Positions 5,038-60,165 of a stretch of 64,000 nt of DNA are shown one piece after another. This DNA is from a bacterium (lineage in GTDB: Bacteria; SAR324; JACQKK01): contig CBDBIG010000003.1 in the NCBI GenBank assembly GCA_965205845.1, positions 212,453 to 276,452 on the forward strand, in the 5' to 3' direction. Within the stretch, counting starts at the first letter, position 1. Each line of letters begins with the position of its first letter. Below the pieces are notes generated by a model that was not told where the DNA came from, ran no database searches, and saw only the letters and a list, made by a program, of their open reading frames with translations. A program made the translations under genes and the position numbers.

Positions 5038-5180
5038 TCCATGCAAAGGGAAACAAAAACGCTTTTGCTTTGGCAAGGTGCGTGGTTAGATCTCATGCCA
5101 CCCGTGTTTGTTTACAGACCGGGAGCATCATTTTTTTTCAAATGATAGGCACGCAAAAAAACCATTCTTCAGAGTAAGCC

Positions 5181-5885: not shown

Positions 5886-6203
5886 CATCGCATTGGATGA
5901 TTTTGTGATGCGCATGCAACGCTTGGCACTAACACAGGGCTGTGGCCTAAAAACCCATTAGCATCGCATTAGATGATTTTGTGATGCGCATGCAACGCTT
6001 GACACTAACACAGGGCTGTGGCTTAAAAACCCATTAGCATCGCATTGGATGATTTTGTGATGCGCATGCAACGCTTGACACTAACACAGGGCTGTGGCCT
6101 AAAAACCCATTAGCATTGCATTGGATGATTTTGTGATGCGCATGCAACGCTTGACACTAACACAGGGCTGTGGCTTAAAAACCCATTAGCATCGCATTGG
6201 ATG
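5820..6203. repeat. tandem repeat: 76-bp unit x5 plus a partial copy
   Basis: The unit gatgattttgtgatgcgcatgcaacgcttg[g/a]cactaacacagggctgtggc[t/c]taa[c/a]aaccc[g/a]ttagcatcgcatt[g/a]g recurs at 5820, 5896, 5972, 6048 and 6124. The first copy forms the last ~22 codons of the upstream ORF. Confidence 0.9.
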
Positions 6204-12483: not shown

Positions 12484-12845
12484 CCCAGCCCTTTTTATCA
12501 CTGGGTGCCCCTTGCAAAGCACTGGGGGACCCTTTTTATCACTGGGTGCCCCTTGCAAAGCACTGGGGGACCCTTTTTATCACTGGGTGCCCCTTGCAAA
12601 GCACTGGGTGACCCTTTTTATCACTGGGTGCCCCTTGCAAAGCACTGGGGGACCCTTTTTATCACTGGGTGACCCTTTTTATCACTGGGTGACCCTTTTT
12701 ATCACTGGGTGACCCTTTTTATCACTGGGTGACCCTTTTTATCACTGGGTGACCCTTTTTATCACTGGGTGACCCTTTTTATCACTGGGTGACCCTTTTT
12801 ATCACTGGGTGACCCTTTTTATCACTGGGTGACCCTTGCAAAGCA
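12484..12845. repeat. complex tandem array: 41-bp unit x4 followed by a derived 20-bp unit x~9
   Basis: The 41-bp unit is cactgggtgccccttgcaaagcactggggga-ccctttttat. It is followed by runs of cactgggtgaccctttttat, which is an internal-deletion derivative. The array lies immediately upstream of and overlaps the alr start region. Confidence 0.9.
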
Positions 12846-12867
12846 CTCCCAAAAAAATCGACCCCCC

Positions 12868-21163: not shown

Positions 21164-22639
21164 TTACGTGCGGTGGCCTAAAAATAAACGGCGTAGTTGA
21201 TGAAGTTCCATGCGTGTTTGGGGTTGGTTTTCAAGCATTTTTGCTTGCGTTTGGGAAGCCCCCACAACGGTCGATGCGCTGCGCCCACCCAGCAAAGCAG
21301 CAATTTCTTGGTAGGGCAAATGGCTAAATTGGCGCAAGCAATAAATGGCCATGCGCCTTGCGCGGGTAATGTTTGCACCCCGTTTACGGCTGCTTAGGTC
21401 TTGTGCTTGCACCTGAAAATGCTTGCAGATGATGCCCATAATATGCTGTGGGGCAAGGGGTGCCAAATGGGTTTGTCGTTTACGGTCGCGTAAGAAGCCT
21501 TGACACAAAGTTTTGACCTGCTGCAAAGAAAACGGCGACCACGCCGCTTCAAGCCGTTGTTGTGCACTTAGCCGTACCACTGCACCATGAATTTGGCGTA
21601 CATCCTCTGCAAGGTGTTCTTCAAGGTAGCGTAAGGCCTCGGGGTGAATTTTGACGCGCTCTTTTTCGAAAAAAGCGTGCAAAAGTTGGCTTCGCCCTTG
21701 CTGATTGGGGGGGTGAATGGGAAGCACCAACCCCATGTTAAGGCGCGAGTACAAGGCCTCACTTAGGTGTGGGAGGGCATCGGGCAAGCAAGTGCTGGTG
21801 AGTACCAATTGGCGCCGCGCCGCATGCAGGGTATCGATGCAATGCAGTAGGGTTTCTTGCGAGGTCGGGCTAATGAGCAGGTTTTCAATGCCATCGAGCA
21901 AAAGCACTTGAACTTGCTGTAAGGTGTGCTGCCATATATGGCTCCGGCGGCGGCGAATTGCCTCCAGTGTGCGGAGCTTAAAGTGCTCGGCACTCATCAG
22001 CATGAGGTGCTCGGGGTGAGCGGGCCGTAAAGTACTGCTTAAAGCATGGCGCATCGCATAGAGCAGATGGGTTTTGCCCACCCCTGGGGGACCGTAAAAC
22101 ACCAGGGGGTTCCATAACGCAGCTTGTTGTTGGCAAACATCCATGGCGATGCTTAGGGCATTTTGGCTACCTTCGTGGGCAATAAAGGAATCGAAACGCA
22201 ACTTTTCAAGCCAGGCGGGGTGCTCTTGGCCGCTGCCAGCAAAAAGGGAGGCACTGGTTCGAGGGTGCGTTTGGGGGGGAGGGCTTGCAGGCAGTTTGGG
22301 CACAGTCTCAACGGACCCAGAGTTGGCTGCATCCCTCTCACCCCAGCAAAGGGTAACGGGCGGCGCAACCTGCCATTGAGGAAATCCGACCTTCAGTGCC
22401 TCAACCAGCAAAGGGATATACAGGTTTTTAATGCGCTCGCGCAAAAATGGACTATCAATGCCAGACAAACCCACCGCACTGGGCGCAAGAGACACCAGGC
22501 GCAAAGGCGCAAGCCAGGCGTTTTTCTCCTCGGCATCGAGCTTAACAGCCAGCACACCCAATGCTTCCCGCCAGCCTGCAGCCAAAGTCGGCGCATCGCA
22601 TAACACAGCAGATGTCACCCCCCTTTTACCGTCACCCAT
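21164..22639 (-). CDS. dnaA: chromosomal replication initiator protein DnaA
   Basis: Domain I (WREALGVLAVKLDAEEKNAWLAPLRLVSL). AAA+ Walker A NPLVFYGPPGVGKTHLL and box VII/sensor regions. Domain IV HTH ANITRARRMAIYCLRQFSHLPYQEIAALLGGRSASTV. Confidence 0.85.
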   Translation of the reverse strand: MGDGKRGVTSAVLCDAPTLAAGWREALGVLAVKLDAEEKNAWLAPLRLVSLAPSAVGLSGIDSPFLRERIKNLYIPLLVEALKVGFPQWQVAPPVTLCWGERDAANSGSVETVPKLPASPPPQTHPRTSASLFAGSGQEHPAWLEKLRFDSFIAHEGSQNALSIAMDVCQQQAALWNPLVFYGPPGVGKTHLLYAMRHALSSTLRPAHPEHLMLMSAEHFKLRTLEAIRRRRSHIWQHTLQQVQVLLLDGIENLLISPTSQETLLHCIDTLHAARRQLVLTSTCLPDALPHLSEALYSRLNMGLVLPIHPPNQQGRSQLLHAFFEKERVKIHPEALRYLEEHLAEDVRQIHGAVVRLSAQQRLEAAWSPFSLQQVKTLCQGFLRDRKRQTHLAPLAPQHIMGIICKHFQVQAQDLSSRKRGANITRARRMAIYCLRQFSHLPYQEIAALLGGRSASTVVGASQTQAKMLENQPQTRMELHQLRRLFLGHRT

Positions 22640-26186: not shown

Positions 26187-27143
26187 TTGCCCGTGCGCGG
26201 AGGCTTGGCTCGCGTGGCCGTTTGGAGTTACCTCTTTAAGGCCTACGCGCTCAAAGACTGGGCAGCCTTTTTAGAGGTGTTTGGGATGCCCTTGCGCATT
26301 GGGCGTTATGGGCCAGGGGCTAGCGATGAAGACAAGCGCATCCTGCGTCAAGCGGTGATCAACCTTGGGAGCGATGCGGCTGCCGTGTTGCACGAGAGCA
26401 TGCAAATAGAGTTTCAAGATGCCGTGCAGGGCCGGGGCGGGGAGGGCCTGTTTTTGGCAGCGGCCGAGTTTTGGGATAAGCAAACCAGCAAGGCGGTGCT
26501 TGGGCAAACCGCCAGCACCGAGGGCACCCCTGGCAAACTGGGCAACGATGCCGCCCAAATGGAGGTGCGCCAAGACATACTGCGCGCAGACGCCGCCGTT
26601 TTGGCAGCCACCTTAAACCGCGACCTGGTCAAGCCTTTCATTGACCTTAATTTTGGCCAGCCCCCCGATAACCGCTATCCGCGAATTGTGTTGCCTTTGC
26701 CTGAGCCCGACAAAATGGAGGCAATCGTTGATGCCATTGCCCGCCTTGTGCCCCTTGGCTTGCGCGTTGACCAGCACACCCTGTGCGAGTTGCTCGGTTT
26801 GCCCGAACCGGGCTCCGATGCCCAGTTGCTTGGTACGCCAGCCAGCGCAACCCAAGCCAGCAACCAAGCCCTAGGGCACATATTAACAGCCCTTGCCCAA
26901 GCAACACCAGCCCAAGCGCAAAGCGAATTAGATGCCTTGACAGAGGAAACAACCCAAAACTGGCAGCCCTTGCTGGCGCCCTTGCTTGATCCCTTGGTGC
27001 AAGCCCTTGGCCAAGCGAAGAGCCCAACAGACCTCGCGCGCTTGCTCGCCCAAGCCTTGCCCGAGAGCGATCCGGCCCCCCTTGCCAAGGCGATTGCCCG
27101 CGCCACCTTTAAAGCGCGTGGCATGGGTGATGGGGAAGGCTAA
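26187..27143 (+). pseudogene. Mu gp29-like portal protein (DUF935), N-terminally truncated
   Basis: Only about 318 aa, corresponding to the C-terminal half of a ~500-aa portal (WSYLFKAYALKDWAAFLEVFGMPLRIGRY..). The ORF opens with TTG directly after a stop. Confidence 0.65.
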
Positions 27144-27148
27144 AAACC

Positions 27149-29242
27149 ATGCCCACACCCAAGCCAGGCTTTCATTTTACACCCACCCCGCCCAAAGAAG
27201 CCCTTGCCTACCTCAAGGCCAAAAAACTAAAACCCGCCTTTGACTATCGCGATGTTTGGCGTGAGGAGCACGCCTTGGGCTTTAGCGTGGCCAAGGCAAT
27301 GCAGTTGGATGTGTTGCGTGCCATCCGCGATGGTCTTGCTGAGGCGCTGGCCAAGGGCAAAACCTTTGAGGGTTTTAAAAAAGACCTCATCCCCACCCTC
27401 CAACAAAAAGGATGGTGGGGCATAAAAGGCAAAAAAGACCCCAAAACGGGCAAGATAGAGCAAGTGCGCCTTGGGAGCCCGCGCCGTTTACGCACCATTT
27501 TTTGGGCCAACACGCGCACCGCCTATGCTGCGGGGCAGTGGGAACGCATTGAGCGCGAAGCAGCTACCCACCCCTACCTGCGCTATGAACTGGGCCCCAG
27601 CAAGGAGCACCGTTTGGAGCATCAGCACTGGAACGGGCTTATTTTGTCCAGCAGCGATGCTTGGTGGAACGCCCACATGCCACCCAACGGCTGGGGCTGT
27701 AAGTGCCGCGTCAGGCTTTTAAGCAAGGCCGAGGCAGGGCGCTTGGGTGGCCCAGGCAAACCGCCCACCAACAAAACCCGCCCTTGGCTTAACAAGCGCA
27801 CAGGCCAAATTGAACGCGTGCCCCAAGGCATAGACCCAGGCTGGGATACCAACCCAGGCAAGGTACGCAGCCAAGCCTTGGCCAACATGCTGGCGGCAAA
27901 AAGCGCAGATGCGCCCGTTGCAACCCTCGGCCCGATCCCCCTGCTCGAAGAGCGGGCGGTCATGAAAAAAAAGTTAAGCAAGGCCAAGGGCAGCAACCAA
28001 GGGGGCGTCTATCAAGGGGCAGACGGCATCAAGCGCTACGTCAAGTTTTACACCGACCCTGGCCAAGTCTACGGCGAGGCGGCGGTCAATGCAATCTATG
28101 CCCAGTTGGCGGTCAATGCGTCCAAAAGCGCCTTGGTTGCCCGCAAACAAGGGGGGCTTGCCCTGGCCACCGAGTGGATTGAAGGGGCAGCCCCAATCGC
28201 CTTGGACGAACTAACCCAAGCCAAGGCAAAAAAACTGCTTGACGGGGTGGCGGCAGATGCTTGGCTGGCCAACTGGGATGCCTTGGGGCAAACCTTTGAT
28301 AACGTGGTTTGGCAAAAAGGCGCCCCCGTGCGGATTGACAACAGCGGGGCGCTCTTGTTTCGAGCCAAAGCGGGGCGCAAAAATACCAAGGCACTGGCCA
28401 CAATAGGCGAAGCCGAGGGCTTTTTTCACCCTGCCACCAACCCCACTTACGCCAAGGCAATGGAAAAAGCGGGGGTGCGCATTTACGAGGCGCTGGGGGA
28501 TCACTGGCTTAAGACCGAGCGAGCGATTAGCAACCTAAGCAAAAAAACCAACGCCTTTGCCGACCTCTTGCCCCCCGTGCCAGGGGTGCCCGAGCCCGAG
28601 CGCCTTGCCATGCTACAAACCTTGCAAAAGCGTGCTATGCTCCTCAAGGGGGTGTCGCGCAAGGTGCGTGCCTTTGCCAAATTGCCCGTCCACGAGCAGG
28701 GTTTGATGAACCTCAAAGGCTATCAATACCAAATCTTGCTTGGGCAGGCGAACACAAGGGCGAAGGAATCGGGTGTCGTGCACCGTTTCTCCGAGCCCGA
28801 GTTGGCTGCCTTGCACGGCTACACGGTCATCGATTATAAACCGATTAACCAGGCCAAGCGCGGGAAACTGCCCAAAGCCCTGGGAGAGGAATACGCCCAC
28901 TACACCAAAACCATCATCGCGGGGCTGGCAAAACTCCCCAACTACCGGGGGAAGGTCACCCGAGGGACGACCCTGCCCGAAAGTGAACTGGCCAAAATTA
29001 AGCCAGGCAAGGTTTGGACACCCAAAGGCTTTACCAGCACATCCACGGGTAAAGCCTTTGGTGGGCCGCATCGGCTGAAAATACAGAGCCGCACGGGCAA
29101 GGAGGTATCTTGGATATCCCGGCACGCGCACGAAAAAGAGGTCCTCTTTAAACCAGGAACCAGGTTTCTCGTTAAGGAACGAGTACGAAACGGCAAAACA
29201 ACTTTGATAAAACTTGAAGAGGTTAAAGACGATGATAAGTGA
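27149..29242 (+). CDS. MuF-family head-morphogenesis protein fused to a C-terminal ADP-ribosyltransferase (R-S-E class) toxin domain; intact 697-aa ORF
   Basis: The N-terminal Phage_Mu_F region is FWANTRTAYAAGQWERIE...HQHWNGL...PPNGWGCKCRV. The C-terminal ~170 aa carry the catalytic triad of C2/C3/iota-type ARTs: YRGKVTRG (Arg), GFTSTSTGK (STS) and HAHEKEVLFKPGTRFLV (ExE followed by LF..G..F.V). Confidence 0.8.
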   Translation: MPTPKPGFHFTPTPPKEALAYLKAKKLKPAFDYRDVWREEHALGFSVAKAMQLDVLRAIRDGLAEALAKGKTFEGFKKDLIPTLQQKGWWGIKGKKDPKTGKIEQVRLGSPRRLRTIFWANTRTAYAAGQWERIEREAATHPYLRYELGPSKEHRLEHQHWNGLILSSSDAWWNAHMPPNGWGCKCRVRLLSKAEAGRLGGPGKPPTNKTRPWLNKRTGQIERVPQGIDPGWDTNPGKVRSQALANMLAAKSADAPVATLGPIPLLEERAVMKKKLSKAKGSNQGGVYQGADGIKRYVKFYTDPGQVYGEAAVNAIYAQLAVNASKSALVARKQGGLALATEWIEGAAPIALDELTQAKAKKLLDGVAADAWLANWDALGQTFDNVVWQKGAPVRIDNSGALLFRAKAGRKNTKALATIGEAEGFFHPATNPTYAKAMEKAGVRIYEALGDHWLKTERAISNLSKKTNAFADLLPPVPGVPEPERLAMLQTLQKRAMLLKGVSRKVRAFAKLPVHEQGLMNLKGYQYQILLGQANTRAKESGVVHRFSEPELAALHGYTVIDYKPINQAKRGKLPKALGEEYAHYTKTIIAGLAKLPNYRGKVTRGTTLPESELAKIKPGKVWTPKGFTSTSTGKAFGGPHRLKIQSRTGKEVSWISRHAHEKEVLFKPGTRFLVKERVRNGKTTLIKLEEVKDDDK

Positions 29243-29414
29243 GGAAATGAAGCAATTTATTGAAGAGTCACGGGAATATGACCGCCTGCTTAAAGAAGGC
29301 AAACTCAAGCCTGTGTCAAGGCACCTGCAGGCCAAAATGGACAGTGGTGGGCCCTTTGCGGACGAAATTCACGATGCTCCCCCCGCCAAACCCAAACCGG
29401 GCAAAAAAGGCTAA
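29232..29414 (+). CDS. small ORF, translationally coupled to the MuF-ART gene; candidate immunity/antitoxin protein
   Basis: Its ATG overlaps the toxin stop (gATGAtaagTGA). It encodes 60 aa, acidic at the N-terminus and basic at the C-terminus (MISEEMKQFIEESREYDRLLKEGK...). No homology is recognised. Confidence 0.35.
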   Translation: MISEEMKQFIEESREYDRLLKEGKLKPVSRHLQAKMDSGGPFADEIHDAPPAKPKPGKKG

Positions 29415-29516
29415 GGCAAGTGTGGTTATTCACCCCAAAGGCCTTTCTTTCTATTGTGGCGCACACAGACGACCCCGCCAACTTGCGCCTGGTGCGTGCC
29501 CGCCGCCCTGGTGAGA

Positions 29517-29690
29517 TTGAGGCGCTTTTTCCTGTTGCGCTCGTGCACACCACTCCCGACGCCGATTTATCCCTATTGAGGCGCTTTTTCCTGTTGCGCT
29601 CGTGCACACCCCCAATGCCGATTTATCCCTATTGAGGCGCTTTTTCCTGTTGCGCTCGTGCACACCACTCCCGACGCCGATTACCCCTTT
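29517..29690. repeat. tandem repeat: ~57-60 bp unit x3
   Basis: The unit ttgaggcgctttttcctgttgcgctcgtgcacacc[actcccgac/cccaat]gccgatttatccctat recurs at 29517, 29576 and 29632. Confidence 0.85.
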
Positions 29691-29908
29691 CGCGCATGCC
29701 TGCCAGCCCAGCAAAGCGCCTGCCTTGCACAGCGTCTGGGCTGTAATGGCCAACCAATACGAGCAAGGGCGCTAAAACGCTTTTAAGCCCTTTATCCCCC
29801 TCCTCTAGCCCAACTCCCCAGCCAAACATTTTGCAACGCTTTTCAACGCGTTTAAACGGGGTTTAAACGGGGGTATTTACCCCTGGCAAAAGTTTGCAAA
29901 GGGGGTAG

Positions 29909-30497
29909 TTGCCCCTGGCAAAAGGGTGCACTAGCGTAGCCTTTTTTTGTGTGTTTTGCATGGCTAAACTAAAAGGCATGGAAACACAAATCCCCCAACA
30001 AGCCGAAATCCCAGCCCTTTGCATGGCGTTGGATGGTGCCCTAGCCGCCATCGGGCAGGGCGAAGTGCCCGAGTGGATACCGCTTTTGCCCAAGGGGCCG
30101 CGCATTCAAGGGCGCACAGGGCGTGAGTGGCAGTTGGCAGATGTACAAAAGGTGATAGCCGCCAGTTTTCGCAATTTGCCCAAAATCCCAGTTGACTGGA
30201 ACCATGCCACCGAGAAGTATGGCGCAACCAGCCCGCAAACCCAGAAAGCTGCGGGGTGGATTGTGGCGATGGAAGCGCGCCCTGATGGGGTATGGGGCAA
30301 AGTGGAATGGACAAACGGGGGGGCGCATGACAGAAGAGATTGGCGACAGGCGCAAAGAGCGCGTCCAATGGCTCGGGCAGGTGGCAAGGGGCCTGATCAG
30401 CCTAGGGGCAGCGATTGAAGAGCCCCGTTCAGGAGGCGCGCCTGCGGTGCAAAGCACGCCCCGCCAGTTGACAAGAGACGCTTTGCGAGGGCTTTAA
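29909..30497 (+). pseudogene. Mu gpI-like protease/scaffold protein, frameshifted at a G7 homopolymer (30315-30321) and C-terminally truncated
   Basis: The frame-1 ORF (29909-30418) and the frame-3 ORF (30192-30497) overlap. The N-terminal region (WQLADVQKVIAASFRNL..PVDWNHAT..AAGWIVAMEARPDGVWGKVEWT) is Mu-I-like. The frame switches at acaaacGGGGGGGcgc. Confidence 0.5.
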
Positions 30498-30501
30498 AAA
30501 A

Positions 30502-31143
30502 ATGGCAGGCGTGCAAATTGAGGCCGACCTAAGCGGGCTAAAAACACTAAACCAGCGCATTGCACGCTTGGGCAAGGTGGATAAGCGTAAACTGCTAAAC
30601 GCCTTGGGCGCAGAGATGGAAAGCCAAACCAGGCGCAGGTTGGCGGAGGAGAAAGAGAGCCCCGAGGGAGAACCGTGGAAGGCGTGGTCGCCAAAACATG
30701 CCCAAACACGCCACGGCGGGCAGGGCTTGTTGCTGGGCGAAGGGGCGTTATTGGATAGCATCACCTTTGCCGTGCCCAACGATGGGGCGGTGTTGGTGGG
30801 TAGCAACCTTGTCTACGCTGCCATTTTGCAGTTTGGCGGGGCGGAGGTGGGCAAACCAGGCCTGCCAGCGCGCCCCTACCTTGGGCTTAGCGCCGCCAAT
30901 CGCCGTGGCTGGTGGGGTGGATGTAGCGGCAGTGGCATTTGGCAACACACCCGCGCCAAAAACACCCAGGCCAATGCCCTTGCCCTCGCCGATGAAGCCC
31001 GCCAAGCCCTAGCATGGCTCACCAAAGACGGCCTCGCCACCAGTTTGGAAGTGGAAGCGGTGAGGCAAGCAGGGCAGATTGCCTTGCAGGTGCGTGTAAA
31101 GGGCGTTGCAAGCGCGTTTAAAGGAGGTGTGTATGCCGTTTAA
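30502..31143 (+). CDS. Mu gpG-like phage virion morphogenesis protein (N-terminal ~150 aa), with an unrelated C-terminal extension
   Basis: IEADLSGLKTLNQRIARLGKVDKRKLLNALGAEMESQTRRRLAEEKESPEGEPWKAWSP...VYAAILQFGG is the virion-morphogenesis (PF05069-type) pattern. Confidence 0.6.
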   Translation: MAGVQIEADLSGLKTLNQRIARLGKVDKRKLLNALGAEMESQTRRRLAEEKESPEGEPWKAWSPKHAQTRHGGQGLLLGEGALLDSITFAVPNDGAVLVGSNLVYAAILQFGGAEVGKPGLPARPYLGLSAANRRGWWGGCSGSGIWQHTRAKNTQANALALADEARQALAWLTKDGLATSLEVEAVRQAGQIALQVRVKGVASAFKGGVYAV

Positions 31144-31834
31144 AATCCCCAGCCTTGGCGATTTACGCGCCCGCAGCCGTGGTGATATGGAAGCCGCGTT
31201 GCCAGGGGTTTCTGCCCAACAGACGAGCATGGCGCAAACCTTGGCAGACAGCCACGCTGCCGCCATGCGCGGGCTTTACCTCCACCAACAAACCCTAGCC
31301 CAAGACCTCTTCCCCGACACCGCCCAAGCAGACGCCCTTGAACGCTGGGCAGGCATTTGGGGTGTCACCCGCACCCCAGCAGCCAGGGCAGTCGGTCAAG
31401 TGGTGTTTCAAGGTCAAGCAGGCGCTTGGGTGCCCCTTGGCTTAGGCTTGCAAAGCCAGCGCAACCAAACCTACACCACCAGCCAAAGCGGGGTGCTGGC
31501 CACCAACGGGCAAGCGACCCTCGCCGTGCGTGCTGATAAAGGCGGGGCGGCAGGCAACCTAGCAACAGGTAGCACGCTCACCCTAAGCAGCACCGTGCTC
31601 GGGGTTGAACCCGAGGCAAGGGTCGCAACAGGCGGGCTTGTCGGTGGCGCACCCCAAGAGACGGATGATGCCCTGCGCGCACGCCTGCTGGCACGCATTC
31701 GCGCCCAAGAACGCCTTGGCAGCGTAGCCGACTACAAAGCCTGGGCTTTGGCCGTCCCTGGCGTTGATCGCGCCTGGGCTTTTGCCCATTACGCGGGCGA
31801 ACCCCCATTGGGGCCGGGCAAGGGGAAGGCTTAA
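31135..31834 (+). pseudogene. baseplate J-like protein (Mu gp47 / P2 gpJ family), C-terminally truncated
   Basis: ...DLFPDTAQADALERWAGIWGVTRTPAARAVGQVVFQG... and ..ADYKAWALAVPGVDRAWAF are baseplate_J motifs. Only about 230 aa are present, against ~350-380 expected. Confidence 0.5.
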
Positions 31835-32062
31835 CGCTGCGGGCGTTGGGCATACAAGGCGGGGATGAGGAAATGCAGGAGCATAGGCACTCATATCAGA
31901 TTGGGGATCGTCCAGTAAACGGGGGAACCCGATCTTACGTGGGGTGGGAAGATGTACCTTATGGGCCACTTTACACTGACAACTACGGACTAGGCCAAAG
32001 CGGGAACATGCAGCCCTACCTGCCGCTTCACTACATCATCAAAACTTAGTAAAGGTTTTTTT

Positions 32063-32470
32063 ATGGAACTCATCATTACCCAAAGCACGATTACCCTGGG
32101 CGAATACACGGCCAGTTTAGCCGACTTTGCCCAAGACTACGGCCAGCGAGCCCCAGCCCCTGCGCATCCCGACAGTGCCCGTTCCTATCATCGAGGCGTG
32201 CGCCACGCATCCCACACCAAGCACGGGCAAACCGCTGGCGGGCCACTGGTTTGGGCCCAAGGCGATGCCATTATCGCAGCCCTGCCGACACTGCTTGCCA
32301 AGCAAAAAGCAAGGGAAGACGCGGCACAGGCAGCAAGACAGGCCGAACAAGGGACAAGCCAAGCCGAGCAAGGGGCAAGCCAAGCCGAGCAAGGGACAAG
32401 CCAAGCCGAGCAACAAAGCCGCCAAGAACAGGGGCAAGAACAGGGGCAAGAACAAGGCGGGGATGCTTAA
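32063..32470 (+). CDS. hypothetical low-complexity protein with internal 21-bp (EQGTSQA) and 12-bp (QEQG) repeats
   Basis: An ORF inside the prophage remnant. It carries the repeat ...AEQGTSQAEQGASQAEQGTSQAEQ..QEQGQEQGQEQG. Confidence 0.3.
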   Translation: MELIITQSTITLGEYTASLADFAQDYGQRAPAPAHPDSARSYHRGVRHASHTKHGQTAGGPLVWAQGDAIIAALPTLLAKQKAREDAAQAARQAEQGTSQAEQGASQAEQGTSQAEQQSRQEQGQEQGQEQGGDA

Positions 32471-32482
32471 AGGAAGTAAATC

Positions 32483-33250
32483 ATGAAAAGTTTTTTTAGT
32501 CGGAAAGGTGGCAAGCGTCTGCTTGCAAAAAGGCTGGCGGGTATCATTGATGCCGTGCCACACACATGCTATTGCGAGCCCTTTATGGGCGCAGCCCACG
32601 TCTTTTTTGCGCGCAATCGCGAGCGCACTATTTCTGAAGTGCTAAACGATATCGACGGCGAATTGGTGAACCTATTTCGCGTGCTTAAATACCACAAGGA
32701 GGCGTTTTTGCAGGGCTTGGAATGGGGGGTCTACGCGCGGGAGGTATTTGAAAACCTCCAAAAACAAGACCCCCAAACTTTGACCGACATCCAGCGTGCC
32801 CAACGCTTTTATTGCCTGCACAAAATGTCTTTTGACAGCGAAACTAGACAGTTTGGCTACTCAAAAAAACAGCCAACAATCACCCTGCAACCCTTAAAAA
32901 TCCTTTAAGCAAGCCCACGCGGCCCTGCAAAGGGTGCATCTTGAGTGCAAACCTTGGCCAAGATGTGCTCACCCGCTACGATTCAAAAAACACCCCCTTC
33001 TACCTCGACCCACCCCACCACGGGCACGAAAACGACGATGGCAAGGTTTTTTGTTGAGCGAGACTTTGAAAGTCTCGCAACGGTTAAAGGGCAAGGCAAG
33101 TTTCTCCTGAGCATCAACGACACACCCAAAATGCGCGCGTATTTTGCGCGGTTCGACCGCTACCAGATTAAAACGCACTACACCCTAGGCTTGCATGCTG
33201 TTGTCGGGAAAAAACAGGTACGCGAATTGCTATACACAAACTTAGCACCT
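32483..33250 (+). pseudogene. Dam-like N6-adenine DNA methyltransferase (D12 class), disrupted by at least two frameshifts or stops
   Basis: The N-terminal part (32483-32908) has GGKRLLAKRL..YCEPFMGAAHVFF and NDIDGELVNLFRV. The DPP(Y/H) region is TPFYLDPPHH (~32990-33020). The C-terminal part lies in another frame (33040-33250: ERDFESLATVKGQGKFLLSINDTP). Confidence 0.75.
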
Positions 33251-52558: not shown

Positions 52559-54691
52559 CTATTGAAACCCAGGGGCATAGACCGCCTCAATGCGAGCCTT
52601 CCCCGGAACTTTGCGCAACGCACCAATGTAATCACGCATAATGGCCAAGACTTCTTTAAGGACAGGGTCTTTTTTCGGCGTTTCTTCGGCGTTTACGCCC
52701 TTCGTTTGTTTACCCTTCTTTTTTGTATATTCCTTCGCCTCGACCAACATTTCCTTGGCGCTAATGTACGCTTTGTTTTTTCGGTTTGCCAAGTACTTTT
52801 TCACATCCACTTCCATCTGCTTAAAATAATCTACCTGAGCCCTACGCTGCTTAGATTTCTGGTTTAATTTGGCAATAAACACGGGCGGGTGTGGGAAAGT
52901 GACGCGGTATTTGGCCGTCCTAATGGCATCCCAGGGCAAGGGATTTTCGAGTGCCGCCTCCCCAATGTCAAGGTGGTTGTTTAAAGAAGGCAGCGTGATA
53001 TCGGAGGTCACGCCACGGTGCTGGGTCGATTTTCCACTGGGCAAATAAAATTTTTGCACTGTGGTTTTAAGGGCACCGAGTTTTTGTGGCAATTCAATGA
53101 TGTTTTGGACCGTCCCCTTGCCAAAAGTTGCACGTTCGCCCACAACCACTGCGCGCCCATAATCTTGCAAGGCGCCCGCCACAATTTCTGATGCAGATGC
53201 CGAATAACGATTGACCAGCACAATTAAGGGGCCTCGATAAAGAGGCTTTTCGGCAGGGCTGTTATGTATATCCACCTTGCTAATGCTACGCACCTGCACC
53301 ACAGGTCCACTGGGAATAAACAAACCCGCCACGGCAATCGATTCACCCAAGCCACCACCACCGTTGTTACGTAGATCCAAAATAACCCCTTGCACATTTT
53401 GAATGTGCTGATGAAGCAATCGGGCAACATCACGCGAGGCACTTTTGTAGTCTTTTCCCGCACGTCGCTCGGAAAAATCCACATAAAAAGAAGGCAATTC
53501 AATGACCAACACGGGTTGCTTGGCGGTTTTAGGCTTGGCTGCGTTGTATACCTTGGCCTTCGCCTCGCCATCACGAAGCACAATTTTTTCGCGGGTAATC
53601 GAAAACTCTTTGCGCAAACTACGCCTACCCTCGGTCGATGGGCGCAATACGGCAATGTGCACCACGGTTCCACGAGGCCCGCGAATCCGCTTCACCACCT
53701 CAGTCAAACGCATGTTGGTTACGTCTTCGAAGCGACCTTTTTTCTGGGCCACTTCAACAATCACATCTTCTGTTTTTAATCCCCCGTGATTGGCCGCAGC
53801 ACCCCCATGGATAATGGAAGCAATCACCGTACGCCCATCCTCCCAGCGTAAAGTCGCCCCTATGCCTTCCAGGGATAGACGCATCGAGATATAGAAATTT
53901 TCTAAATCGTCCCCCGTCAAATAGGCCGAATGTGGATCGTAGGCACTGGTAAATGCATTTAAAAAAGCGGCTAAAATATCGCCTTGCGTGTAGCCTCGAA
54001 TGCGGCTGTGCAAGTTGGCATAACGCCTTTGAAACGCCTGTTTGCTCTTTTTGAGCGTTTGTCCGTCCGCCATGCGCTCAAGCACTTGAAAACTAAGGCG
54101 CAAACGCCAGTGTTCTTCCGCCTCTTGGCGTGTCTTAGGGTTTTTTAGTTTTCGCCAATTGGCGGGGAAACGCTGACTGGGGGATATTTTAAACGAGGTT
54201 TTTAAAAGTTTTGCCAAAAAGCGTTCGCGCACCTCGATACGCTGCAATAAACGCTGATATATGTTGTTTGCCAATCCAATGCGCCCCTGAAGCACGTCGC
54301 GGGTAAGGTATTTGGCTTGAGCCAAAAAGGTGTCCAAATCCTCTTGCAAAAAATAAATACGTTCGGGATCAAAATTATTGACGTAGTGCTTAAGCATCAG
54401 GTTGGCATGATCAATTTCAAACTTTTCGCGAAGCACATGGCTGCGTAAAAAAACGCGGGCAATTTCTGCCACATGCCCCCCACTTAGCTGGGGTTGCTTC
54501 GTGCCTTGGGCGGATGCTGGCAACCACCATGCAGCACCTTGCATGATGCAGGCAACAAGGCTTGGTAAAACATACCTTCGTAACAAGCGATTCTTGGCGA
54601 AGCAAACAAACCCATTTTGCACCCTGGCAAAGCGTGGCAAGGCAGTAAATGAGCGTAGATTTTTGATGGGATGCAAAAAAGCGATGTTCAT
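52559..54691 (-). CDS. prc: carboxy-terminal processing (tail-specific) protease, S41A
   Basis: 710 aa with a PDZ region (GGAAANHGGLKTEDVIVEV). S41 catalytic region VLVIELPSFYVDF...GVILDLRNNGGG..LIVLVNRYSASASEIVAGAL. Confidence 0.85.
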   Translation of the reverse strand: MNIAFLHPIKNLRSFTALPRFARVQNGFVCFAKNRLLRRYVLPSLVACIMQGAAWWLPASAQGTKQPQLSGGHVAEIARVFLRSHVLREKFEIDHANLMLKHYVNNFDPERIYFLQEDLDTFLAQAKYLTRDVLQGRIGLANNIYQRLLQRIEVRERFLAKLLKTSFKISPSQRFPANWRKLKNPKTRQEAEEHWRLRLSFQVLERMADGQTLKKSKQAFQRRYANLHSRIRGYTQGDILAAFLNAFTSAYDPHSAYLTGDDLENFYISMRLSLEGIGATLRWEDGRTVIASIIHGGAAANHGGLKTEDVIVEVAQKKGRFEDVTNMRLTEVVKRIRGPRGTVVHIAVLRPSTEGRRSLRKEFSITREKIVLRDGEAKAKVYNAAKPKTAKQPVLVIELPSFYVDFSERRAGKDYKSASRDVARLLHQHIQNVQGVILDLRNNGGGGLGESIAVAGLFIPSGPVVQVRSISKVDIHNSPAEKPLYRGPLIVLVNRYSASASEIVAGALQDYGRAVVVGERATFGKGTVQNIIELPQKLGALKTTVQKFYLPSGKSTQHRGVTSDITLPSLNNHLDIGEAALENPLPWDAIRTAKYRVTFPHPPVFIAKLNQKSKQRRAQVDYFKQMEVDVKKYLANRKNKAYISAKEMLVEAKEYTKKKGKQTKGVNAEETPKKDPVLKEVLAIMRDYIGALRKVPGKARIEAVYAPGFQ

Positions 54692-54918
54692 AGGGGACTG
54701 TATGAATTAGGGCGACGGGTAGAAAAAGGGTAGATAAGGGTACTCTATATTAAAGGCTTGCCAATTGTGGACTGATTGTCCCATCATACACAGGCAAGGA
54801 TGTTTGGTGTAAATTTTTCTCTAAAATGCTGGCTTTCGTGATGCTGGCGCATATGGTATGAGTCGCGGTAGACTTTGCTTGTTTTCGCATAAGGGTTTAT
54901 CTAATGCAATCTGCACTA

Positions 54919-55260
54919 ATGGAATGGGTACACAGTACTTTCAGGCGCGAAGATCGCCAAATGCCACGGGTGGGTGCTCAAATTAAGGTTGACTACCGCA
55001 TTCGTGAAGGAACCCGCGAACGCATTCAAACGTTTGAGGGCGTGGTAATCCGCTGCCATCGCGGTGCAAGTAACTTGAATGCGACCTTTACGGTACGCAA
55101 AATATCGCAAGGTTTTGGCGTGGAACGCATTTTTCCTTTGCATTCCCCTTTAATGGAAAACATTAAAACGATGCGCCGAGGGGCTGTACGACGCTCGAAA
55201 CTGTACTATTTGCGCAACCTGCGCGGTAAAAAAGCGCGCTTGCGTGAGATAAATGCCTGA
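54919..55260 (+). CDS. rplS: 50S ribosomal protein L19
   Basis: [42 protein letters not shown]...[14 protein letters not shown] is collinear with E. coli L19. Confidence 0.85.
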
Positions 55261-56254
55261 TTTTGCACTGGAGCAAGATCTGCTCGTCAACCAAAAAAAT
55301 GTTCGGGTGGTACGCTGGGTGGCTGGGGTTGATGAAGCAGGGCGGGGCCCCCTTGCAGGTCCTGTGGTGGCCGCAGCCGTAATGCTGCCCATGGATTGGC
55401 CATCCCATTTACGTCTCGATGACTCGAAGCGTTTGAGCCCAGCCGCACGTGAGATGCTTTACAAAGAGATATGCAAGCGTGCTATTGGCTGGCGCATCCA
55501 AGCGGCGTCCCCGGCACAAGTGGATGGCATGGGAGTGCTCAATGCCACTTTTTGGGCCATGTCGCGTTGTTTACAGCGACTAAGGCCCAGACCCGACTGG
55601 GCATTGATTGACGGTCCCCAGGTTCCCCTCGCCGTGTGCCCATGTAAGGCGGTTGTTAAGGGAGACAGCCGAAGCAACTCGATTGCTGCTGCTTCTATCT
55701 TGGCCAAAACCTCGCGCGATCGGGTGATGCGGGTGTATGGTGCACGCTTTCCTTTGTGGAACTTTGCTCAACACAAAGGCTACCCCACCAGGGGGCATCG
55801 CGTTGCCATTGCACAGCACGGGCTAAGCCCGATTCATCGGCGCAGTTTTCGCGCACTGCCTGCCAATGGGTTGCCACAAAAGCCAACCCGTGTCCCCAAG
55901 AGCAAATCGCAGCTACGCGGTCGATGGGGAGAAGCCTTGGCCGCAGACTATTTGAGCCAACTTGGTGCCACCGTTGTCGCCAAAAATTACGTTTGTCGCG
56001 AAGGAGAGATTGACATTGTGGCACAGCTTGAGTCATTCATGGTGTTTGCAGAGGTTAAAAATAGGGCAAGCGACCAGGTGGCTTACCACCCATCGCTGGC
56101 AGTAAATCGTAGAAAACAGTGCCACCTCCGCCTTGCAGCGGAGCGTTATTTGCTTGAACACGACGTGGAACACCTGCAACCGCGCTTTGATGTTATTTGC
56201 ATCTGTGGCAAGAAGGATAACCCCAGGCTTGAACATATTCCCAATGCATTTTAG
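55253..56254 (+). CDS. rnhB: ribonuclease HII fused in-frame to a YraN/UPF0102-family endonuclease domain
   Basis: Residues ~20-215 are RNase HII ([21 protein letters not shown]...DDSKRLS...). The C-terminal ~120 aa match YraN ([33 protein letters not shown]...FAEVKNRAS...RFDVICI). No stop codon separates them. Confidence 0.75.
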
Positions 56255-56383: not shown

Positions 56384-56647
56384 ATGGCCCATCATCTTTC
56401 TGCCAAAAAACGCATTCGTCAAACCGCCAAGCGCAATCTGCGTAACCGCATGCTACGTTCCAGTTTGCGTACCTGCCTTAAAGGCTTTCAAACCGTGTTA
56501 AAAGAGGGCAATGTAGACACCATTCAAGGGAGTTACCCCGCCGTACAAAAACAGATCGATCGTGCGGTGACCAAGGGTATTTTGCATCGCAATACCGCCA
56601 AGCGCTATAAATCGCGCCTAAGTGCTGCTGTGGCCAAAAATATTTAA
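56384..56647 (+). CDS. rpsT: 30S ribosomal protein S20
   Basis: MAHHLSAKKRIRQTAKRNLRNR... is 87 aa and collinear with S20. Confidence 0.85.
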   Translation: MAHHLSAKKRIRQTAKRNLRNRMLRSSLRTCLKGFQTVLKEGNVDTIQGSYPAVQKQIDRAVTKGILHRNTAKRYKSRLSAAVAKNI

Positions 56648-56785
56648 AGAGCAGGGTGTGTTTACAGGCCAGCACCTTTGTTGACAAACCACGCCGTGGT
56701 TGCAAAATACCATAAGAATCTTTGCCCCGTTTGCAATGGGGTTGTGTGTGCCGTTTATTTTAAAAAAAAGGACCGTAGAAACGCC

Positions 56786-57415
56786 ATGATACAGGGCTTG
56801 TTAGGCCGCAAAATTGGGATGACGCAAATTTTTACCGATGAGGGTGTGTGCTTGCCGGTAACAATTGTGCAGGCGGGACCCGTCAAAGTGGTCCAGGTAA
56901 AAACCAAAGAGACCGATGGCTATGCCGCCGTGCAGGTGGGTTTTCAAGAAGAAACCAAAAGGAAGCGTGTGACGAAACCGGCCCTTGGGCATTTTAGGCA
57001 GTTGCCTCCTTTTCGCCATTTGCGCGAATTTAAGTTGCAAGATGAACACGCAGCACCACCTAGCATAGGCCAAGCCATCGACCTAAGTGTGTTTAGTGAG
57101 GGTGAGGTAATTTGGGTGAGTGCCAACTCAAAAGGGCGAGGTTTTCAAGGGGTTATCAAACGCTACGGATTTTCGGGCGGGCCCGCCGCCCATGGGTCGC
57201 AATTTCACCGTTCCCCGGGTTCGATTGGCAACCGCACGGATCCAGGACGCGTGTTTAAGGGCAAAAAACTTCCGGGGCGGATGGGTGCGCGGCGGATTAC
57301 GACCAAGAACCTTAAAATTGCTAAAATCGCTCCCGAAAAAGGCTTAATCTTAATTCACGGCCCCGTACCTGGACCCAACGGTGCGGTGGTTGAGGTGCGC
57401 AAGCCCACCGCTTAA
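56786..57415 (+). CDS. rplC: 50S ribosomal protein L3
   Basis: MIQGLLGRKIGMTQIFTDEGVCLPVTIVQAGP... and ...FHRSPGSIGNRTDPGRVFKGKKLPGRMG are collinear with E. coli L3. The ORF opens upstream at 56678, but the ATG at 56786 matches the L3 N-terminus. Confidence 0.85.
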   Translation: MIQGLLGRKIGMTQIFTDEGVCLPVTIVQAGPVKVVQVKTKETDGYAAVQVGFQEETKRKRVTKPALGHFRQLPPFRHLREFKLQDEHAAPPSIGQAIDLSVFSEGEVIWVSANSKGRGFQGVIKRYGFSGGPAAHGSQFHRSPGSIGNRTDPGRVFKGKKLPGRMGARRITTKNLKIAKIAPEKGLILIHGPVPGPNGAVVEVRKPTA

Positions 57416-57715
57416 AAGCTCGATTTTCCACGAAAACCATTGCTCTTACGGCCACTGAACCCAACGGTGCGGTGGTTGAGGTGCGCAAAGCCCACCGCTT
57501 AAAAGCTCGATTTTCCACAAAAACCATTGCTCTTACGGCCACTGAACCCAACGGTGCGGTGGTTGAGGTGCGCAAAGCCCACCGCTTAAAAGCTCGATTT
57601 TCCACAAAAACCATTGCTCTTACGGCCACTGAACCCAACGGTGCGGTGGTTGAGGTGCGCAAAGCCCACCGCTTAAAAGCTCGATTTTCCACAAAAACCA
57701 TTGCTCTTACGGCCA
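57374..57715. repeat. tandem repeat: 86-87-bp unit x4, beginning inside the 3' end of rplC
   Basis: Unit starts are at 57374, 57460, 57547 and 57634. Each unit re-creates the last 13 codons of rplC (PNGAVVEVRKPTA), the stop codon and ~45 bp of downstream sequence. Confidence 0.9.
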
Positions 57716-57869
57716 AAAGCACCGGCTCCGCTTATCCCATGGGGAATAAGACGGCAGCCGAGGCGAACCGGGCCCCTTTCTGTGCCTGGTGAAGTACACA
57801 AAAGGATGGCCCCCAGGGAACGCTGCGCGGGGATCCACCACGCTTTACGAGATGCAGCCTGCTAACGGG

Positions 57870-58331
57870 CTAAACCGCCGCCATCATCTCCACCTCTGTG
57901 GACACCCCGGAGGGTAACTGGCTGGTCCCCACCGCGGCACGTGCATGATGCCCTTTGTCGCCAAATACCTCCACAATTACATCCGAGGCACCGTTAATTA
58001 CCTGCGGGTGCTGGGTAAAGTCTTCGGTGCTATTCACAAAGCCACCCACACGCACAATTTGCTTCACTTTGTCGAGGCTGCCCAAATAACGCTTAAGCTG
58101 GGCTAGGCAATTTAGTGCGCACAGTCGTGCCGAGGCATAGCCTTCTTCCACGCTGATGTTACGCCCCAACTTGCCGACGTATTTTAGACCATCATCCCCC
58201 TTGGGTACTTGACCTGAAACAATAATGAGCCCATTGATTTCAATACAGGGGACGTAGTTTGCCATAGGGACTGGGGCCGAGGGCAAGACGATGCCCAATT
58301 CTTGCAGCCGTTCATCAATGCTTTTTGCCAT
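57870..58331 (-). CDS. ridA: RidA/YjgF-family reactive-intermediate deaminase (alternative starts at 58343 and 58367)
   Basis: YjgF/chorismate-mutase-like fold signature ...ANYVPCIEINGLIIVSGQVP...ARAAVGTSQLPSGVSTEVEMMAAV. Confidence 0.75.
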   Translation of the reverse strand: MAKSIDERLQELGIVLPSAPVPMANYVPCIEINGLIIVSGQVPKGDDGLKYVGKLGRNISVEEGYASARLCALNCLAQLKRYLGSLDKVKQIVRVGGFVNSTEDFTQHPQVINGASDVIVEVFGDKGHHARAAVGTSQLPSGVSTEVEMMAAV

Positions 58332-58652
58332 TCGTGTATTCATTCCCCTTAAAATGTGTTGTTCCATCTTGTTTTTAATTTCATCTTATTTTTCCGTCCG
58401 CTTGGGTGGTGTTCTCTTTCAAATAGGGCTACTGTTTACTCCCGCTTGTTACTTCCGCTTGCTGTTCGTAATAGCCAAGGTCAAGAACAAAAACGAGCGC
58501 GTGGACCACATCTTGGCAGACCATAGTGTACGTCTCGAGGGGGTCATTACCCATGTATACGGGGGTCTTTACCGCTATTTTTACGCTTTTTTTCACCCTC
58601 CCCAGGGTCGTTTTTGCTTGGCACCCACGCAAGATTAAGTAACCATTAACAT

Positions 58653-59249
58653 ATGATGCAGCTGTTTTGCGATGTTGATGGCGTACTATTAGACTTTGAG
58701 CGGGTTTTTATTCCTTGGGTCAACCGTTTTTGTGGGAAAAACCTACCGCCTTACTATCAATCAAAAAATTGGGATTTTACCGAGCTCCTCACCAAAGAGC
58801 AGGCATTTAACCTATGGCGGCACTTTATCGAAAGCGAACAGGCAGCCCAAATGCCCAGTACCATAGCCCCCGCAGCCTTTAATGCTGCCACCAAGCATGT
58901 ACAAGTCGAACTACTCACCAACTTTCCTCTGCAACAGTTTCATAAACGCTGGGCCAATCTACATAGCCTAGGTTTTGTGTATCAAGGGCTTTACCACGGC
59001 GGCTTGGTTAAAAGCAGCCCAGTGTCCCATCCCCCACCCACCAAAGCGCAAATCATTCACCAACTTTACGCGGGCAAAAAGGCCTTTTTTGTGGATGACC
59101 ACCCCGACAATTGCCTAGACGTGTTAAGGCATTGCCCACAGGTGGAGGTGTGGGTTATGCACCGCCATTTTAACCGCGGTTTCTACCATCGCCAAATCCA
59201 GCGTACGGCAGGATGGCCCACCTTACTAAAACGCCTCCAACACCCTTAA
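58653..59249 (+). CDS. HAD-superfamily hydrolase (5'(3')-deoxyribonucleotidase-like)
   Basis: Motif I is DVDGVLLDF at the N-terminus, and a late FFVDDHPDN resembles motif IV. Confidence 0.5.
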   Translation: MMQLFCDVDGVLLDFERVFIPWVNRFCGKNLPPYYQSKNWDFTELLTKEQAFNLWRHFIESEQAAQMPSTIAPAAFNAATKHVQVELLTNFPLQQFHKRWANLHSLGFVYQGLYHGGLVKSSPVSHPPPTKAQIIHQLYAGKKAFFVDDHPDNCLDVLRHCPQVEVWVMHRHFNRGFYHRQIQRTAGWPTLLKRLQHP

Positions 59250-59587: not shown

Positions 59588-59930
59588 CCACAAAAAGGCA
59601 CCCATAGCAGGCTCGAATAGACCCTCGTGCAGAAACCGCCCACGAACCCAATGCCCTTGTGCCACAAACCCTCCAAGATGCACGCGACAGAATACACGTT
59701 CCACAAAAAGGCACCCATAGCAGGCTCGAATAGACCCTCGTGCAGAAACCGCCCACGAACCCAATGCCCTTGTGCTACAAACCCTCCAAGATGCACGCGA
59801 CAGAATACACGTTCCACAAAAAGGCACCCATAGCAGGCTCGAATAGACCCTCGTGCAGAAACCGCCCACGAAACCAATGCCCTTGTGCCACAAACCCTCC
59901 AAGATGCACGCGACAGAATACACGTTCCAC
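59588..59930. repeat. tandem repeat: 113-bp unit x3
   Basis: The unit ccacaaaaaggcacccatagcaggctcgaatagaccctcgtgcagaaaccgcccacgaa[c/a]ccaatgcccttgtgc[c/t]acaaaccctccaagatgcacgcgacagaatacacgtt recurs at 59588, 59701 and 59814. The array lies 3' of tRNA-Gly on its strand. Confidence 0.9.
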
Positions 59931-60093
59931 AAAACGCTCTGCCGAAGGCGCACATGCATAAAATACGCTATCGTGCTGCCTAAGGGCGTACCAGCAAACA
60001 TTCTTGGGGAAATTCTTGGAGAAAACCGGCCGCAAAATTACAGCCTCCAAAGGTTTGATCCGCTCCGCTCGCTACAAACCCCTGTAAACAAAA

Positions 60094-60165
60094 AGCGGGA
60101 AACGGGATTTGAACCCGCGACCCCAACCTTGGCAAGGTTGTGCTCTACCACTGAGCTATTCCCGC
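60094..60165 (-). tRNA. tRNA-Gly (anticodon GCC)
   Basis: Reverse complement: GCGGGAA-TA-GCTC-AGTGGTA-GAGC-A-CAACC-TTGCCAA-GGTTG-GGGTC-GCGGG-TTCAAAT-CCCGT-TTCCCGC-T. This is a canonical cloverleaf with a T-loop TTCAAAT. No CCA is encoded. Confidence 0.85.

Follow-up and report, generated by a model that had tools for sequence, protein, structure and literature searches.

The 3' end of rplC, the gene for ribosomal protein L3, is followed in this DNA by further tandem copies of itself, stop codon included. The locus therefore raises the question of how the end of an essential ribosomal gene came to be reiterated, and of whether the copies serve any function. The analysis covered the whole 64,000-nt stretch, referred to here as the window. 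We conclude that the array is most likely a locally generated minisatellite of the VNTR type and not a device, and that it is probably neutral; it is known from one assembly.

Anatomy of the array and its place at the end of rplC

The local order of genes is given below; the array lies between rplC and the convergent RidA/YjgF-family gene, referred to as ridA.

52559-54691, minus strand: tail-specific protease
54904-55260: rplS
55253-56254: RNase HII-YraN fusion
56384-56647, plus strand: rpsT (ribosomal protein S20), directly upstream of rplC; Pfam Ribosomal_S20p, E 1.1e-27
56786-57415, plus strand: rplC (ribosomal protein L3, 209 aa), intact, last gene of the cluster; Pfam Ribosomal_L3; stop codon TAA at 57413-57415
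57870-58367, minus strand: RidA/YjgF-family gene, convergent with rplC; Pfam YjgF_endoribonc, E 9e-28

The predicted rplC protein is 100% identical to the homologue P0001. In all, 7573 homologues were found, and among 5.8 billion sequences the next-best L3 after P0001 has 65% identity; in a scan of a genome collection with an L3 alignment, relatives have at most 53% identity among the matches listed. The C-terminus (...PNGAVVEVRKPTA, followed by the stop) aligns with those of L3 homologues, many of which end in ...K-P-x-x, and comparison with 120 homologues identifies its last residues, RKPTA, as a normal L3 end.

TRF places the array at 57369-57715, with a period of 87, 4.0 copies, 98% matches and a score of 673. 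A repeat search gave start-to-start spacings of 86, 87 and 87, and its register agrees with that of TRF and with an alignment of the copies and their flanks. The 87-nt array is real; three exact copies of this length are beyond chance. The four copies are as follows.

57369-57454, plus strand: array copy 1, 86 nt, with G57372, AA57401-57402 and G57432 (TRF and alignment)
57455-57541, plus strand: array copy 2, 87 nt, a non-coding pseudo-3'-end with an extra A (AAA at 57487-57489)
57542-57628, plus strand: array copy 3, 87 nt, same sequence as copy 2
57629-57715, plus strand: array copy 4, 87 nt, same sequence as copy 2

Copy 1 comprises 44 coding nucleotides of rplC (the last ~15 codons), the TAA, and 39 nt of downstream DNA. 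Copies 2-4 differ from it at three sites: G57372 and G57432 are each replaced by A, and AA57401-57402 by AAA. Owing to the additional A, the PNGAVVEVRK reading of these copies no longer shares a frame with the TAA. Since copy 1, with 86 nt, is one base short, the TAAs of all four copies (57413, 57500, 57587 and 57674) nevertheless lie in the rplC frame. Thus, the anatomy given in the preliminary description, i.e., a unit that begins inside rplC, runs past the stop and occurs four times, was recovered by TRF, by the repeat search and by the alignment. The left edge proposed there, 57374, lies within 5 nt of the start of homology at 57369 (CTGgA in copy 1 versus CTGaA in the others). The statement that the last 13 codons and the stop are reiterated holds for the TAA, which recurs four times, but not for the codons, since copies 2-4 are inexact and their codons are shifted by the extra A. 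The copies lie head-to-tail, with a start-to-start spacing equal to the unit length. A CRISPR array was rejected on the same measurement: spacings of 86, 87 and 87 equal the unit length, hence there are no unique spacers.

The array thus follows the last gene of a transcription unit and occupies a convergent spacer at a break in synteny, a setting in which duplicated DNA does the least damage. The spacer between rplC and ridA measures 454 nt, of which copies 2-4 account for 261 nt. The order ...rplS-rnhB-(yraN)-rpsT-rplC, with rplC last, recurs in five loci of four relatives (L081, L082/L085, L083/L086 and L087), whose L3 proteins show 58-64% identity, while the DNA 3' of rplC differs among these five loci. 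Among 80 control loci from diverse bacteria, rplD (L4) adjoins rplC in all 80 and rpsJ (S10) in 76, as determined with phmmer; the same searches detected neither rplD nor rpsJ in the window or in any of the rpsT-rplC relatives examined. The position of rplC outside the S10 operon is a lineage trait and not a local accident, because rpsT-rplC with rplC terminal is found in all five loci of the four relatives. In the clade as a whole, rplC seems to have left the rpsJ-rplC-rplD arrangement that is nearly universal elsewhere, a change that deserves follow-up.

Local origin and proposed history of the repeat

The 87-nt unit is local: copy 1 is the native 3' end of rplC, and no other copy of the unit exists in the 64 kb. 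A metagenome scan with a 29-nt core of the unit returned 0 matches. The changes seen in copies 2-4 appear to be derived, and copy 1 to retain the ancestral state, because the CGCAAGCCCAC state of copy 1 (AAG CCC AC.., RKPT) matches the rplC DNA of L081 and K-P tails are common among L3 homologues.

We infer the order of events, a slippage mechanism and the neutrality of the array. A segment of 86/87 nt, which reached across the stop codon from the last ~15 codons of rplC to 39 nt beyond it, would have been duplicated in tandem. Copy 1 would then have been kept under selection as the real end of the gene, while the untranslated copy 2 gained two G>A transitions and a one-base insertion of A. 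In a recent step, slipped-strand mispairing or unequal sister-strand exchange would have multiplied the mutated copy into three identical ones. Alternatively, concerted evolution among the interior copies, with selection guarding copy 1, would give the same picture.

The persistence of the array is probably explained by a near-zero cost: the L3 frame and stop are preserved by copy 1, and no downstream cistron or translational coupling is hit. Tandem duplications presumably arise anywhere, and those that leave an intact gene copy survive. A duplication that spans a stop codon leaves such a copy and so passes this selection filter; at the end of a transcription unit with a convergent neighbor, it also disturbs nothing downstream.

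Two further arrays in the window bear on the mechanism.

5820-6203, plus strand: sister array, 76 nt x 5.1, starting 21 codons before the stop of the gene at 5181-5885
59588-59934, plus strand: sister array, 113 nt x 3.1, purely intergenic

Both end in partial copies, of 4 nt (GATG) in the 76-nt array and of 8 nt (CCACAAAA) in the 113-nt array, and these are probably the footprint of microhomology-mediated duplication. The 87-nt array has neither microhomology at its junctions nor a partial copy at its end. A hexamer, ACGGCC, does occur at 57357-57362 and 57448-53, but it is offset: the first occurrence falls 6 nt short of the left edge, and the second ends 1 nt before the right edge. Slippage between short flanking repeats, as first proposed, is therefore borne out by the 76-nt and 113-nt arrays and not by the 87-nt array, which lacks junction microhomology. 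In general terms, slippage or illegitimate recombination is the best reading of how the array originated.

This pattern invites comparison with the microhomology-mediated tandem duplications (MTDs) described genome-wide in S. pombe, in which short direct repeats bound the duplication, so that n units plus a partial copy signify microhomology, and in which replication slippage drives reversion (PMC8639346). The 76-nt and 113-nt arrays share the MTD-type partial end copy, whereas the 87-nt array does not show the junction microhomology. Moreover, the MTDs of S. pombe are mostly subclonal and two-copy, while the rplC array is fixed and four-copy, with an older, diverged first copy.

Tandem arrays in the window and in its lineage

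Six arrays of longer period were found in the window, with units of 87, 76, 113, 56, 48 and 20/40 nt. These units are mutually unrelated, the best shared word within the window being 11 nt, and none of the six has a dispersed copy in the 64 kb; a MIRU/REP-like dispersed repeat family was rejected on these grounds. A shared boundary motif was likewise discarded: CCACAAAA is present in both the 87-nt and the 113-nt units, yet it shows no enrichment elsewhere, with 13 non-array sites compared with 9.1 +/- 3.2 expected. Three arrays with different units are nearly equal in total length (347, 347 and 349 nt), a coincidence that might reflect an upper limit on length, whether technical or biological.

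The parallel drawn earlier between the rplC array and the 76-nt array, which was said to start in the last ~22 codons of its upstream ORF, is correct; this array begins 21 codons before the stop. The ORF in question (5181-5885) is conserved, with homologues of 54-57% identity that align to the C-terminus, one of them syntenic. However, the reiteration of gene ends is not a property of the arrays, because only two of the six overlap the 3' end of a gene. It is, rather, what is left after selection has removed the duplications that break genes. The other four lie in promoter regions or plain intergenic DNA. Across the window, the other arrays occupy unrelated contexts, namely promoter regions, a dead prophage and the vicinity of a tRNA gene.

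To quantify the array load, we ran TRF with the settings used for Wolbachia (2 7 7 80 10 50 500). The window contains 13 arrays that cover 1977 nt, or 3.1% of bases (~203 arrays per Mb), compared with 15 arrays, 0.13% of bases and 18.7 per Mb in 80 control loci (802,612 bp), a density contrast that is somewhat inflated, as the controls, taken around rplC in diverse bacteria, are gene-dense ribosomal regions. Arrays with a period of at least 40 and an identity of at least 90% number five in the window and two in these controls. High loads are also seen in two distant relatives. L084, a 7-kb contig syntenic with window positions 2290-5885, has three arrays that cover 576 nt in 6 kb, including intergenic arrays of 50 nt x 6.4 and 75 nt x 3.0. 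In L085, which belongs to a circular contig of 1.6 Mb, six arrays cover 971 nt in 21 kb; those inside genes have periods divisible by 3 (15 and 33), as would be expected from the selection filter. Relatives of the L086 type are poor in arrays. The units and sites of L084 and L085 are unlike those of the window, which implies that arrays arise and turn over independently. Overall, tandem arrays are ~10-25 times commoner in the window and the two distant relatives than in the control DNA, with the inflation already noted. These data point to tandem duplications that arise often, or are purged weakly, throughout the lineage.

The systems that appear closest to the one described here are the intergenic arrays of Wolbachia and Ehrlichia ruminantium (PMC3287509, PMC10710844). 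The Wolbachia VNTR-105 and VNTR-141 and the E. ruminantium loci resemble the window's arrays in their periods of ~50-150 nt, in their few near-identical head-to-tail copies, in their non-coding location, in the specificity of each unit for its locus, and in the many loci per genome. Slipped-strand mispairing is the accepted origin of VNTRs of this type. Wolbachia wMel has 93 arrays, which make up 1.6% of its genome (PMC3287509); the 3.1% of bases found in the window exceeds this value, in DNA whose coding fraction is at most ~80%. The likeness has limits. Wolbachia and Ehrlichia are obligate intracellular alphaproteobacteria, whereas the source here is a relative of SAR324/Lambdaproteobacteria-type MAGs, and the window encodes TCA-cycle, cell-wall and transport genes. 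In addition, the Wolbachia units contain hairpins, while the 87-nt unit has no significant structure. The absence of spacers, the period of 87, the 4.0 copies with 98% matches and the identity of copies 2-4 mark the rplC array as a minisatellite; VNTRs are defined by strain-to-strain variation in copy number, and as the array is known from one assembly we speak of a VNTR-type element only.

The MIRU-VNTRs of Mycobacterium tuberculosis, reportedly described by Supply et al. in 1997 and 2000, are said to be one dispersed family of related sequence with about 40 loci, located between co-transcribed genes and carrying small ORFs that couple stop and start codons. Like the rplC array, they are tandem units of 40-100 nt at gene ends, in ribosomal or housekeeping operons, and they can overlap the upstream stop codon and carry in-frame stops. 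Unlike them, the array units in the window are unrelated to one another, and the gene after rplC is convergent. A MIRU-type family was thus rejected, given the unrelated units, the convergent ridA, and the last position of rplC in all relatives examined.

A more far-reaching interpretation of the array load is that an unusually active, lineage-specific process of tandem duplication in a clade related to SAR324/Lambdaproteobacteria continually remodels gene ends and spacers, and that it has already moved the rplC stop, with a relic of an older L3 tail left behind at 57709-57729. We regard this as possible but rather unlikely. A change in replication or repair and purifying selection that is very weak are the candidate causes. 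If such a process were at work, it would pose a lasting hazard, or offer an opportunity: copy 1 could recombine unequally with copies 2-4, and L3 could thereby trade its short end for a long tail made of repeats. The copy number of an array might then tune the expression of terminal genes such as rplC. If the richness in arrays holds genome-wide, the lineage would offer a free-living parallel to Ehrlichia and Wolbachia in studies of tandem duplication in intergenic DNA and at gene ends. This richness is of more interest than the rplC array alone, which is a structural curiosity in which an essential ribosomal gene tolerates a reiterated pseudo-3'-end at the end of its transcription unit.

Whether the assembly reports the correct number of copies is a separate matter. 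The three sites at which copy 1 departs from the rest show that no fewer than two distinct copies exist, but the number of identical interior copies is read from one assembly. A duplication that exists, but in which the number of identical interior copies (2-4) was mis-set by collapse or expansion, is an unlikely account of the array. Copies 2-4 form an exact repeat of 261 nt, which short reads are unable to span, and the near-equal totals of the three arrays mentioned above might mark a ceiling of read or insert length. Against this, a single ceiling would not account for array lengths of 384, 167 and 97 nt, variants specific to individual copies occur in order in other arrays, and the source contig spans 877,621 bp. 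Furthermore, relatives with long-read-like contig names also bear arrays of 225-320 nt. The number of identical units nevertheless calls for long-read confirmation, and a minisatellite of this kind would suit strain typing as a VNTR marker.

Function, reading frames and a possible older L3 tail

A function of the array in the 3'-untranslated region, as a multiplied terminator, a Rho-loading site, an mRNA-stability element, a source of sRNA, or a buffer against transcription from ridA, is in our estimation improbable. Some need for a signal exists: rplC is terminal, and a consensus scan found no canonical intrinsic terminator between it and the convergent ridA, so a termination signal is needed in 57416-57869. 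However, within 57369-57715 the same scan detected neither a terminator-like nor a promoter-like site on either strand. Intrinsic (Rho-independent) terminators, single or in tandem, were rejected accordingly, as no unit contains a hairpin plus U-tract on either strand.

Predicted folding gave a similar result. The fold energy of one unit, a check that the preliminary description had asked for, has a z-score of +0.30 and is no better than that of shuffled sequences. The z-scores of the whole array (-1.26) and of two units on the minus strand (-1.26) are also within background; that of the DNA after the array is -1.24. A multiplier of terminators or attenuators was rejected on the missing consensus sites together with these background z-scores. 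A known structured RNA family was rejected as well: Rfam 15 yields 0 matches at E<=1 in 56600-57900, and a tRNA-Gly is the sole match at gathering score in the window.

Rho loading was gauged crudely from the C/G ratio in windows of 78 nt. C is moderately enriched in the 3' half of the unit, and the best 78-nt window, at the end of the array, has a ratio of 2.55, in the 98th percentile. However, most 78-nt windows of the array fall below the 90th percentile of the 64 kb, and a Rho-loading site was rejected because the ratio is unexceptional. Two further observations argue against a functional element, namely that the relatives have nothing comparable 3' of rplC and that the other arrays of the window occur in unrelated contexts. 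The earlier suggestion of terminator or attenuator multipliers, or of mRNA-stability elements, thus found no backing in consensus sites, folding, Rfam matches or C/G ratios. The absence of structural and consensus signals does leave room for a function, e.g., Rho-dependent termination or protein binding.

Two reading frames run through the array.

57321-57722, minus strand: antisense ORF, 133 aa, an internally repeated peptide, artefactual; sub-threshold Pfam matches only, 0 significant stretches
57472-57792, plus strand: sense ORF, 106 aa, through copies 2-4, artefactual; sub-threshold Pfam matches only

Both frames are open because 87 nt equals 29 codons, and the sense ORF stays open through copies 2-4 because the extra A also takes the TAA out of frame. 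A real protein encoded through the array was rejected, as Pfam gives only sub-threshold noise. The antisense ORF, which exists as first described, was rightly considered artefactual, and annotators should treat both the 133-aa and the 106-aa ORFs as spurious.

The right boundary of the array resembles the coding end of a relative's rplC.

57709-57729, plus strand: right array boundary, ACGGCCAAAAGCACCGGCTCC, 21 nt; 18/21 match to the last codons and stop of L081 rplC (TAKSA, then the stop)

The local alignment between this boundary and L081 scores 27, compared with 16.4 +/- 2.2 for shuffled sequences, 4 of 4000 of which reach 27. The segment may be the relic of a longer ancestral L3 tail, but the match was noticed post hoc and is suggestive only. 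It suggests that the current TAA precedes what was once a longer tail, and that some of the unit's downstream portion is a coding relic.

A further scenario is that the AAA state is ancestral, that the repeat was originally an in-frame 29-codon repeat within a lengthy C-terminal extension of L3, and that a 1-nt deletion in copy 1 truncated the protein to its normal length. The 87-nt unit does correspond to 29 codons, and with AAA the L3 frame would be open through copies 2-4 and 25 further codons (the 106-aa sense ORF). In the AAA frame the VRK codons line up with the LTAKS relic, as in L081, and long L3 tails exist in the group (P0073, 263 aa). Nevertheless, we consider this scenario very improbable. 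The CGCAAGCCCAC of copy 1 is identical to the L081 DNA, and the K-P tail is the common state among homologues, whereas no homologue has an equivalent of the AAA reading (RKAHRLKARFSTK...). The 76-nt period of the sister array, moreover, is not divisible by 3.

Finally, an enzymatic origin of the repeat, either as the VR/TR pair of a diversity-generating retroelement or through reiteration of an att site by an integrase or transposase, can be practically dismissed: the downstream copies have A at all substitutions (2/2 in the 87-nt array, plus the A indel, and 3/3 in the 76-nt array), which superficially resembles adenine-directed mutagenesis, but only 2 of the 23 adenines of the unit differ, such elements do not arrange their template and variable repeats head-to-tail, and an unselected copy under AT-biased mutation is expected to gain G>A changes and an indel in an A-run. 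About 55 ORFs across the 64 kb were scanned with Pfam, and no reverse transcriptase, integrase or transposase was detected; a retroelement was rejected on this basis together with the adenine count and the head-to-tail layout, and an integrase or transposase origin by the lack of such genes in the window. The only mobile-element remnant found in these scans is a decayed Mu-like prophage.

Location of rplC and its stop codon

rplC has moved out of the S10 operon across the whole lineage, that is, in the window (56384-57415) and at the rplC loci of its relatives (L081, L082/L085, L083/L086 and L087, where a slash joins two handles for one relative). At these loci, as in the window, rplC is instead placed after rpsT, closing the cluster rpsP-rimM-trmD-rplS-rnhB-yraN-rpsT; neither rpsJ nor rplD is found near rplC in the window or at any of the loci named. 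Among 80 control loci around rplC from diverse bacteria, rplD adjoins rplC in all 80, and rpsJ is present in 76. Within the relocated cluster, rnhB and yraN form a single reading frame in the window and in one relative, and are two separate genes in other relatives:

55253-56254: RNase HII fused to YraN (UPF0102), single ORF, 333 aa
L085 17098-18114 (1.6-Mb circular contig): the same fusion, 338 aa

The right boundary of the 87-nt array that spans the rplC stop codon was compared with the rplC locus L081. The 21-nt segment at 57709-57729 matches L081 4461-4481, i.e., the final codons and stop of the L081 rplC gene (TAKSA*), at 18 of 21 positions. This match suggests that the stop codon of rplC in the window was shifted upstream, by an earlier indel or insertion of about 33 nt.

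Tandem arrays in the window

Besides the rplC array, the arrays of the window include the following:

5820-6203: 76-nt x 5.1 array, starting 21 codons upstream of the stop of ORF 5181-5885
12489-12847: array of a 20-nt unit, about 17 copies in two unit variants
29516-29682: 56/59-nt x 2.9 array within a Mu-like prophage, flanked by its MuF-ART gene on one side and its protease fragment on the other
59588-59934: 113-nt x 3.1 intergenic array, between the HAD-like ORF 58653-59249 and tRNA-Gly(GCC) at 60094-60165 (minus strand)

The ORF into which the 76-nt array extends is a conserved gene, without a Pfam match, with homologues P0122 and P0123 (54-57% identity), one of them syntenic, downstream of sucB-lpdA. 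At unit position 51 of this array, C and T alternate, copies 2 and 4 differing from copies 1, 3 and 5, which suggests a higher-order duplication of 152 nt; the last, partial copy is GATG. The 113-nt array likewise terminates in a partial copy, of 8 nt (CCACAAAA), and is crossed by long spurious ORFs.

The 20-nt array fills a divergent promoter region, ending about 21 nt upstream of the probable ATG (12869) of the alanine racemase gene. It consists of about 4.5 repeats of the pair CCCTTTTTATCACTGGGTGc + CCCTTGCAAAGCACTGGGGGA, followed by 9 pure copies of CCCTTTTTATCACTGGGTGc. Its role could be that of a binding array resembling iterons or operators, or it could be a further product of slippage.

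Despite their very different units, the arrays of 87 nt (57369-57715), 113 nt (59588-59934) and 20 nt (12489-12837) are nearly equal in total length, at 347, 347 and 349 nt, respectively; the 76-nt array totals 384 nt. The near-equality of the three may reflect coincidence, a ceiling set by the assembler or read length, or a biological limit.

Arrays in relatives and the state of the genome

Long-period arrays were also found in two distant relatives:

L084 (7-kb contig), 2712-3031: 50 nt x 6.4
L084, 4665-4889: 75 nt x 3.0
L085, 3579-3763: 33 nt x 5.6
L085, 4768-5017: 58 nt x 4.3
L085, 8438-8508: 16 nt x 4.4
L085, 14892-15129: 15 nt x 15.9

Their units are unrelated to those in the window, and their sites differ too. 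Because these relatives have arrays of their own, richness in tandem arrays is a trait of the clade; few arrays are present at L086 and L087.

A decayed prophage is also present in the window:

about 26187-32908: decayed Mu-like prophage
27149-29242: fusion of a MuF and an ADP-ribosyltransferase domain (MuF-ART), within the prophage

Its portal is truncated to profile positions 137-335, and the Mu protease I, baseplate J and Dam methylase are likewise truncated fragments. Coding sequence makes up no more than about 80% of the whole window, which has 21 gaps of at least 250 nt. Along with the arrays and the decayed prophage, these values suggest relaxed streamlining. At 21164-22639 (minus strand) there is a DnaA-family gene with a weak score.
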